Of a DNA stretch of 64,000 nt, positions 29,253-54,897 are shown one piece after another. Source of the DNA: Terriglobia bacterium (GTDB taxonomy: Bacteria; Acidobacteriota; Terriglobia; 20CM-2-55-15); assembly GCA_965198225.1 (NCBI GenBank), contig CBDAOY010000007.1:928001-992000 (forward strand), in the 5' to 3' direction. The first letter of the stretch is position 1. Each line of letters opens with the position of its first letter. The notes beneath the pieces are model-generated. The model did not search any database, had not been told where the DNA came from, and saw only the letters and a program-made list of their open reading frames with translations. Position numbers and translations under genes: made by a program.

Positions 29253-30056
29253 TCAGGTCTTCTGCAGGAATTCTCCAACGACGTGGTTGAAAGCTGCCGG
29301 GTTTTCGAGGTTGCTCAGGTGTCCCGCATCGGGGATTTCTGCGTAGCGGGCCCCGGTGATCGCGTCAGCCATCTTCCTGGATTCTTCGACCGTCGTGACG
29401 ACGTCCTCCCGCCCGACGATAACGAGTACGGGACAGGTGATTTCTGCTAGCAATGAGGTGGAGTCGGGGCGGTCTCGCATTGCGCGCAGTGCCTGGCCCA
29501 CCGCGTCGGGTCTGGCGCCGGCGATCTTCGGCTCGATGAGTGCCCGGACTCCAGGATCTGCCTTTTCCCGTAGCAGGCGCGGCATCATCGCTTCCACGAG
29601 ACTTTCGGTCCCGCGGCGGTCGACGGCCTCGGCGAGTCGAGTGCGCGCGTTCTGTTCGTCCGGGTTGTCGGCCCGTGCGCGGGTATCGGCGAGGATCAGC
29701 CGTTGGACCATCCTGGGCCTCTTCCTCAAAAGTTCGAAGGCGAGATAACCGCCCATCGACAGACCGGCGAGCGCGATAGTGGAGACATCCAGCGTGTCCA
29801 GCAGGCCGAGGACGTCGTCGGCCGCGTTGCCGAGGGTCCATTCGTGGTCGAAGGAGGGGGATTTGCCGAAGCCGCGTACGTCCGGCGCGAGGACGCGGCA
29901 GTTCTCGGAGAGCGCATCGATTTGAGGCGCCCACATCGTGTGATCCAGGGGGAACGCGTGCAGCAGAAGAACTACCGGCCCGGTCCCGACATCGCTGTAG
30001 TGGAGTGGGGAACTTGGGGCGGGAGACCGAGGCCCGGAATGGATACGATCAGACAT
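29253..30056 (-). CDS. Alpha/beta fold hydrolase
   Basis: LLHAFP, PDVRGFG, GLSMGG, AGHLSNLE. Confidence 0.88.
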   Translation of the reverse strand: MSDRIHSGPRSPAPSSPLHYSDVGTGPVVLLLHAFPLDHTMWAPQIDALSENCRVLAPDVRGFGKSPSFDHEWTLGNAADDVLGLLDTLDVSTIALAGLSMGGYLAFELLRKRPRMVQRLILADTRARADNPDEQNARTRLAEAVDRRGTESLVEAMMPRLLREKADPGVRALIEPKIAGARPDAVGQALRAMRDRPDSTSLLAEITCPVLVIVGREDVVTTVEESRKMADAITGARYAEIPDAGHLSNLENPAAFNHVVGEFLQKT

Positions 30057-30126
30057 CTTTTTCCCGGCCTGAACTCGCTCTTCCTCGGCGACTCGGAACG
30101 GGCCGCTAGTGACCTGTTGCAGGCCG

Positions 30127-30558
30127 CTAGAACGTGGAGGTGCCGGAATAGACCGATGAGATGTAGCTCTTGATCTGCTCCAGGGTACTGCCTTGGTCGT
30201 GCAACCTTCTCGCGTCCAGCGAGATATCCTGGCAGAGCACTCAGCCGGCGGCGTGGCTGTCGATGTAGCAGAAGAGGTTGTTGTCGTGACCCTCCGTCTG
30301 GTCACAACCGCAGTAGCAGGGCAGCTCGGCCAGCACTTCTGGAATGTCCCGAGCGGCCACGTAAGCCTGCCGTGTCTTTCCCTGGAAGAGGTCCGGTGAG
30401 AGCGTAGCGATATCCATCGATGCTCCGGCGCCGCCCGTGCCGGCACCGCTGTCGGAACGGATGGAATACCAGCTCATGACTCCGAGCAAAATGGCCACAC
30501 CGAGCAGTAGCAATGTCTGGTAGCCGGGACTGCCTTTATTCGTCTTCTTCTTGTTCAA
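30127..30558 (-). CDS. PCYCGC-motif protein, candidate selenoprotein (UGA at 30241-30243 in UxxC)
   Basis: PCYCGC..GH.N..C..SHAAG-TGA-VLC; frame stays open to TAG at 30127; hairpin 3' of the UGA. Confidence 0.7.
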
Positions 30559-31055
30559 CTTTCGGAACTCCAGGTTAGGGATGAGATCACCGTCTTGAGT
30601 GCAAACAGTATTGTACCCTTTTCTTCTTCGCTGAGTTCCAGGCCTGCCTCGTTCATTTCGGCGATGACGAAGCCCAGCAGGTGCAGTTGGCCGTCACGGC
30701 CCGAGACCGACGATCGGTCGATGTCGGCCCCGTCGAGGCCGTTCATCTCCTGGATCCACTCGCGGCTTTCGCCGCAGGCCGACGTTATCGTCTGCGCATC
30801 GACCCGCTCGGGGGCCCGGCTGCGGCCTTCCTCGACGGCCTTGTACACCATGTAGGCCATGAACAGTGCCAGCTCCCGGGCCTGCTGGCCGCTCTCTGAC
30901 GTCAGATCCGTGACGAAATCGCAGATTTCAGGCTGTTTCGAAAAGAACGCCTCGAACTCTCCGTCCAGGACATCGTCGGGGAACTCGGCAACCCTCTGCC
31001 GGACGCGGTCGATGGTCTCCGGCCCGATCACCTCGACTGGTTCTGTCTGGCCCAC
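30555..31055 (-). CDS. Hypothetical protein
   Basis: Operon-like overlap with both neighbours; protein-like composition. Confidence 0.7.
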   Translation of the reverse strand: MGQTEPVEVIGPETIDRVRQRVAEFPDDVLDGEFEAFFSKQPEICDFVTDLTSESGQQARELALFMAYMVYKAVEEGRSRAPERVDAQTITSACGESREWIQEMNGLDGADIDRSSVSGRDGQLHLLGFVIAEMNEAGLELSEEEKGTILFALKTVISSLTWSSES

Positions 31056-52409: not shown

Positions 52410-52869
52410 TTAGTCTTCAGGAGCGTAGCTGGACAGCTCCTCTTCGAGTCGTTCCTGGAAACTGCGGTCATCGACGCCGGCGGCAACGGCCGGTCGTTGG
52501 AAGCGATCGCGGAACCGGCGAACGTAGTATGCGACAAAGAAGAGCCCACCGATCAGTACGACGAAAGGCATCAACCAGGCCGAGATGTTGAAGGCGCCGG
52601 TTGTCGGTGGCGCTGCCAGGACCGTGAGCCCGTATTTTTCGACGAATCGTGCCAGGATGCTTTCTTCGTCCAGGCCTTCGTCGACGAGCCCGGCCAGTTC
52701 AGCCCGCATCGGCACGGAGTTGGAGCAGGCGATCATGTTGCATGCCCTGAGGATCTGGTTGCAGCCACAGGTACAGATCATCTGGCTCCCGATCTCGTCG
52801 ACCTTCTCTTCGTTGGACACCTGCGGAGCGGACGAAACGCCTCCGACCGCAAACGCGATGAGCGCCATG

Positions 52870-52892
<23 letters not shown>
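52410..52892 (-). CDS. ccmH: Cytochrome c biogenesis protein CcmH
   Basis: ICTCGCNQIL..C, F..KYG..VLAAP, W..P. Confidence 0.85.

Positions 52893-54897
<2,005 letters not shown>

Follow-up and report, generated by a model that had tools for sequence, protein, structure and literature searches.

Decoding of in-frame UGA as selenocysteine (Sec) through SelB and the SECIS hairpin is a standard, established mechanism in bacteria. One of the families that uses it is CYCXC, also named PCYCGC or OS_HP4 (Pfam PF13798), for which NCBIfam provides the equivalog model NF041379 ('OS_HP4_CYCXC', "CYCXC family (seleno)protein"). One review tabulates the family as a UxxC selenoprotein with one Sec (PMC13188914), and a 2022 review lists 'Hypothetical protein OS_HP4, UxxC', also with one Sec (PMC9312934); Sec-containing members are, therefore, already known, as the original prediction had suspected. 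Both reviews attribute OS_HP4 to Zhang and Gladyshev 2007 (PMC1976440). In that paper's main text OS_HP1-3 and further TGA-containing candidates appear and OS_HP4 is not named; the family is likewise unnamed in the main text of the BSepDB paper. Firmicute members are lipoproteins, according to PMC13068155. No function for the family is stated in the literature that we searched.

We have analyzed a candidate member of this family in a window of 64,000 nucleotides, the whole stretch of DNA under study, from a Terriglobia bacterium. In the ORF listing of the window the gene is split in two: an ORF of 105 aa on the minus strand (30241..30558) starts with TTG and ends at a TGA (30243..30241), and a second ORF of 37 aa (30127..30240, minus) follows in the same frame. 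When the TGA is read through, the two give a single product of 143 aa (…PCYCGC…HAAG-U-VLCQDISLDAR…STF, with the N-terminus M/L-NKKKTNK), encoded by 143 codons and a TAG stop (30129..30127) at 30127..30558. This agrees with the frame, length and coordinates that had been predicted from the letters alone; the strand, left unstated there, is minus. The TTG start (30558..30556) shares bases with the TGA at which the upstream gene stops (TTGA), and the ATG starts of same-genus relatives align with it.

The 143-aa protein scores 110.8 bits against NF041379 (cut-off 90), and the match to PF13798 spans the TGA, covering residues 60-138 with 50.5 bits (cut-off 25); a six-frame search of the genome returns the same PF13798 match with one TGA inside it. 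The family's CYCxC motif is present as C81-Y-C83-G-C85 (30304..30318, minus). The in-frame UGA (30241..30243, minus) corresponds to U106, which opens the UxxC motif U106-V-L-C109 (30232..30243, minus); an invariant H102 precedes the motif. With both family cut-offs passed, a CYCGC motif, a single Sec in UxxC and homologues that carry Cys instead, nothing essential sets the protein apart from CYCXC, and what we have is an ordinary gene of that known selenoprotein family. The frame is open and homologous to the family on both sides of the UGA, which demonstrates, at the level of sequence, that we are dealing with one gene.

Relatives allow the UGA to be placed in an alignment. A homologue was found in 32 of 60 related genomes, and in 12 of these (12 places) the match contains one TGA; all four genomes of the genus have the TGA form, so that the conservation check suggested by the original prediction came out in its favor. 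Thirty loci of relatives were read, and the 29 with the full motif were used for the alignment. The column of U106 holds TGA in 12 of the 29 loci and a Cys codon (TGC or TGT) in the other 17, in line with the earlier proposal that Sec takes the place of the first Cys. Invariant across the 29 rows are C81, C83, C85, H91, C97, H102, C/U106, C109 and I129; since C109 and I129 are among them, conservation goes on past the UGA. The remaining locus of the thirty (L049; G018:C425, ~1551, minus), a Cys form on a short contig, is either a copy with an internal deletion or a degenerate one: it is without the CYCGC segment (…TLPPEMF-GHKNNLFCF…) and retains HGSACAIC. Over the 31 ungapped codons after the UGA, dN/dS lies between 0.08 and 0.70 in ten of ten pairs drawn from 11 Sec forms, a range to be read with the shortness of the segment, the saturation of the deeper pairs and the hairpin constraint on synonymous sites in mind. 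The 12 Sec forms amount to about five lineages and are not 12 independent events. A tree of the loci requires at least two Sec/Cys changes (two to four in bootstraps), with an unresolved backbone, and gives no direction of change. A single-protein search of the genome contigs returned one distant locus only, at 29 % identity, which was left out of the analysis.

Inside the coding sequence, downstream of the UGA, lies a SECIS-type hairpin (30208..30224, minus) of the form UCUCGC-UGGAC-GCGAGA. The six base pairs of the stem (UCUCGC/GCGAGA) close a five-nucleotide loop, UGGAC (30218..30214), in which the second and third bases are G. Numbered from the U of the UGA, the hairpin occupies nucleotides 20-36, with 16 nt between the UGA and the stem and 22 nt between the UGA and the first base of the loop; the hairpin, the loop distance and the G at loop position 2 had all been predicted correctly. 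The limits for bacterial SECIS elements given in the legend of Fig. 2 of PMC13188914 are a loop of 3-9 nt, a stem of 4-16 bp, G in the first two loop positions, a spacing of 16-37 nt and an energy of -7.5 kcal/mol or lower. The hairpin is inside the limits for loop, stem, G, spacing and energy, and the fit to the consensus that was claimed for it from one sequence is now joined by conservation with covariation. It differs from the consensus in two respects: loop positions 1 and 5, which according to the same legend 'mostly' pair in the bSECISearch model, are here U and C and cannot pair, and the extended lower stem is not conserved. A basal GUGC/GCAC helix had also been proposed. The complementarity does exist, and the helix is not borne out: it is absent from the minimum free energy fold, and only 54.5 % of cells pair among the 11 Sec-form relatives. 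A scan of 29900-30700 against Rfam at E ≤ 10 returned no SECIS family, and its three matches (snoZ248, mir-48 and AS-traG) are at chance level, far below their gathering scores.

How strongly folding energy speaks for the hairpin depends on the region taken. The 21-nt hairpin alone folds at -8.7 kcal/mol (z -3.42; none of 200 shuffles as good), and the whole 67-nt region is no better than its shuffles (z +0.47; 136 of 200 fold as well). The real evidence for a SECIS element, at the level of sequence, is the comparison of relatives and not the folding of the whole region. When the register is fixed, at least five contiguous pairs and a loop UGGAN are found in 11 of the 12 Sec forms, ten of them with six pairs; among the 17 Cys forms a single one reaches at least five pairs (it has five), and the others have between none and three. 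In the alignment of the 11 Sec forms 98.5 % of cells pair, two stem pairs show compensatory change (CG<->UA and GC<->UA), and none of 500 shuffles reaches the observed covariation; sliding the stem partner makes pairing collapse to 20-61 %. The twelfth Sec form, L051, belongs to a distant subfamily and folds a hairpin of its own, with 7 bp and a GUU loop that lies 18 nt after the UGA (-16.4 kcal/mol, z -3.06), so that a fitting hairpin is present in 12 of 12 TGA forms. The hairpin lies within a conserved peptide (I-S/A-L-D/E-A-R/Q), and part of its conservation, therefore, comes from protein constraint. However, the peptide DIALDAR is encoded with one to five pairs in eight Cys forms and with six in two Sec forms; as those eight Cys forms share the identical peptide without the pairing, protein sequence does not explain the stem.

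Whether the UGA is read as Sec also depends on the cell's machinery, and here the genome (97 % complete) is well equipped. It encodes tRNA-Sec (Rfam, 72.9 bits; ARAGORN SeC with anticodon tca), SelB (387 bits, cut-off 242), SelA (537 bits, cut-off 268) and SelD (TIGR00476; 373 bits, cut-off 125), so that the selA/selB/selC/selD set that had been put forward as a check is present in full and above the curated cut-offs. The selD match (G000:C9:419380-420303, minus; locus L019, outside the window) itself contains one in-frame TGA, and SelD is, therefore, probably a selenoprotein in this genome.

Could the UGA simply be a stop, leaving a truncated PCYCGC protein of 105 aa and 37 decaying codons downstream? 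This is what gene callers report, and the six closest proteins in the public collection that we searched (58-99 % identity, 90-110 aa) all end in …HA[AT]G, which is at the UGA. Such a reading would, however, drop half of a Pfam domain that is matched as far as residue 138, and homology ending at the TGA, named beforehand as grounds for dismissal, is not what we see. It would also leave unexplained a downstream frame that all 12 TGA forms keep intact and conserved, with C109 and I129 invariant, dN/dS below one in every pair, the co-occurrence of hairpin and TGA, and a complete Sec machinery in the genome; we consider a true stop very improbable. Less probable still, to the point of being almost negligible, is that assembly or sequencing turned a TGC or TGT into the TGA, or that Cys or Trp is inserted at the TGA independently of the Sec pathway. 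Cys forms are indeed common in the family (17 of 29 loci), but the codon is TGA in 12 genomes, and an ordinary TGA stop ends the upstream gene next door (30557..30555). Contigs from three independent runs (X2, X4 and X7) show no difference over 30241-30243 and keep the TGA, as does a strain variant in X7 in which 30239 and 30240 are changed. The TGA is no assembly error, and the TGC or TGT that might have turned up in place of it did not. X4 and X7 also yield a second type of contig, with 11 differences over the 110 nt of 30128-30237 in the 3' part of the gene and a different sequence beyond 30128, which points to a strain or relative that co-occurs and has a different neighbor downstream.

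We conclude that the locus very probably encodes a 143-aa CYCXC/PCYCGC selenoprotein in which the UGA at 30243..30241 is decoded as Sec, and the decoding itself is well supported by the comparisons above. In the mechanism that we propose, the hairpin would act as a bacterial SECIS element and recruit SelB and Sec-tRNA(Sec) to the ribosome; because of this recruitment, translation would not end at the UGA, taken to specify selenocysteine, and would run for another 37 codons to the TAG. The six closest public proteins are then stubs that end at the UGA, which means that the Sec, the motif's second Cys and the last two helices are missing from the databases. As a real gene of a catalogued family cut at the UGA by gene finders, the locus calls for an annotation correction and does not amount to a discovery: standard ORF calling splits the gene, and the correct reading adds one selenoprotein to the organism's set.

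An AlphaFold2 model built on the 29-row alignment has a mean pLDDT of 81. Residues 13-35 are predicted as a helix, which a disordered linker follows; residues 51-140 form an all-helical domain predicted with confidence (block pLDDT 89-98), and the UxxC motif is at the N-terminal end of helix 107-121. The hydrophobic helix 13-35 (30454..30522, minus) follows a Lys-rich tail and is a predicted membrane anchor. Topology of membrane proteins is set by the positive-inside rule, and by this rule we infer that the N-terminal helix anchors the protein in the membrane, with the Cys/Sec domain outside the cytoplasm. The Sec/Cys pair with two-residue spacing at the start of a helix is common to this model and to the thioredoxin-fold UxxC/CxxU selenoproteins, families that are listed in PMC1976440. 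The predicted fold is, however, all-helical without beta strands and, therefore, no thioredoxin fold, unlike the thiol-oxidoreductase UxxC/CxxU families of that list.

Searches for a known structure gave little at stringent thresholds: the family profile matched no PDB sequence at E ≤ 1, and Foldseek with the model found nothing in the PDB at E ≤ 0.001. The best natural fold matches are to the three-helix periplasmic domain of CcmH, a thiol-disulfide oxidoreductase of cytochrome c maturation (2hl7 and 2kw0), and they are weak, with a Foldseek E of 1.4 and a TM of 0.51 on the target for 2hl7. By VIA the match to CcmH is likewise weak (Z 5.5, rmsd 3.5 over 69 residues), in a Z range that is common for helical proteins.

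Profile comparison points to the same protein. Aligned by hhalign with 30 CcmH sequences from relatives, the family profile reaches a probability of 91.5 % (E 8.7e-7, 62 columns), and the family alignment against this genome's single CcmH reaches 53 %; in the controls, reversed alignments reach 4-7 % (maximum 6.8 %) and 20 column shuffles at most 4.6 %. The alignment pairs PCYCGC with CxCGC, and U106 with the last conserved Cys of a variant CcmH. When the CxCGC columns are deleted, the probability falls to 40-65 % and the 37 C-terminal columns keep their register (scores 30.0 and 28.4). The Pfam model of CcmH, PF03918, has no match in the 143-aa protein at E ≤ 10. This genome's CcmH is encoded in the same window (52410..52892, minus; PF03918 65.7 bits; ICTCGCNQ…C….C), where it adjoins an ORF of 675 aa (52870-54897, minus). 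In CcmH of this lineage the canonical LRCxxC gives way to five Cys arranged as CxCGC…C(N/M)(H/I)xxC, all of them conserved to 90 % or more among the 30 relatives' sequences; LRCxxC is found in one row only (L055).

Taken together, the profile and fold comparisons suggest that the CYCXC domain is probably a remote homologue of the periplasmic domain of CcmH. Like CcmH (PF03918), it is predicted to be a small helical extracytoplasmic domain tethered to the membrane. Unlike CcmH, the protein has CYCGC in place of the canonical LRCxxC and a nine-residue insertion with H102 before the Sec, and its anchor is N-terminal, the chain ending at residue 143, whereas in CcmH the domain precedes the transmembrane helix. 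In the alignment the Sec falls on a later Cys of the variant CcmH and not on the classical CxxC active site; if the homology is true, Sec would occupy the place of a conserved Cys in the five-Cys CcmH of the lineage. The gene lies ~22 kb from the ccm genes, outside that cluster. In six genomes of the taxonomic family (this one, G002, G003, G009, G019 and G023) the CYCXC gene and ccmH are 15-25 kb apart on the same contig, which is loose synteny and no operon. We found no paper that links CcmH to CYCXC/PCYCGC in the literature searched. The link is the only new element here, a hypothesis that is concrete and cheap to test.

What would such a protein do? The N-terminal helix would hold the mature protein in the membrane, and keep the small all-helical domain outside the cytoplasmic membrane. 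Besides the Sec, this domain has five Cys and two His that are invariant, and the U106xxC109 pair at the helix start would probably form a selenenylsulfide/selenol-thiol redox couple. Given the probable remote homology to CcmH, we tentatively favor a membrane-tethered extracytoplasmic selenol/thiol oxidoreductase related to CcmH, a reading of sequence and model that falls short of being probable. More specifically, and rather unlikely as it stands, CYCXC/PCYCGC could be a divergent, Sec-using branch of the CcmH-type thiol-disulfide oxidoreductases that acts on an envelope substrate, such as periplasmic proteins whose Cys need maturing or repair, and in this bacterial family maybe together with the 166-aa protein encoded upstream.

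The same selenoprotein might instead bind or handle metal outside the cytoplasm, with C81, C83, C85, H91, C97, H102, U106 and C109 forming one or two sites (for Zn, Cu, Fe or similar) and the Sec as a ligand. H91 and H102, both invariant, suit a metal site no less than a redox site; over the 29 sequences, five Cys, the one Sec/Cys position and these two His show no variation. ZAS anti-sigma factors have the zinc motif HxxxCxxC, which H102-x3-U-x2-C resembles. The top VIA match of the model is a designed zinc-induced dimer (Z 6.2), although a match to a designed protein is uninformative on natural function. The literature adds a Firmicute PCYCGC lipoprotein gene that adjoins a gene for an Fe3+-binding protein (PMC13068155) and other metal-related UxxC/UxxU selenoproteins (PMC13188914). 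In this genome, by contrast, the neighbors are the 166-aa protein without a family, an alpha/beta hydrolase and a BadF-type ATPase, none of them a metal gene, and two other lineages are likewise without metal-gene neighbors; the profile link, too, is to CcmH, a thiol-disulfide oxidoreductase. We regard metal binding as possible and, on this evidence, doubtful.

The gene neighborhood gave no clue to function. Directly upstream, with overlapping stop and start, is a gene for a protein of 166 aa (30555..31055, minus) that has no Pfam or NCBIfam match and finds only unnamed clusters in an Atlas search. By tblastn, 16 of the 29 relatives' loci have it immediately upstream of their CYCXC gene, next to Sec and Cys forms alike, and it is a conserved neighbor within the taxonomic family. 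A single contig from the RNA run X12 covers 30688-30900 only, within this upstream gene, and so says nothing on transcription of the selenoprotein gene. Downstream, 70 nt after the TAG, is an alpha/beta-hydrolase gene (29253..30056, minus; PF00561, 93.8 bits), whose best NCBIfam match, 3-oxoadipate enol-lactonase, is below the cut-off; an alpha/beta hydrolase is downstream in 10 of the 29 loci (at one of these the match is partial), which makes it frequent and not universal. At L043 and L046, the loci of the two other lineages, the neighbors are housekeeping genes (SpoU methylase, a SLOG/LOG-like protein, DAP epimerase and a PfkB kinase).

Beyond the close relatives, a survey of the phylum found the family in 92 of 401 genomes, a tally that includes one genome flagged as unpublished (G082, a Cys form). 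Among the 102 places at which the family was matched, 18 (in 15 genomes) have one TGA, counted wherever in the match it falls. In one complete genome of the phylum (G312) the family is matched four times, at C1:2545756-2554631 and 4395413-4395673, and every match contains one TGA; three of the four lie within 9 kb.
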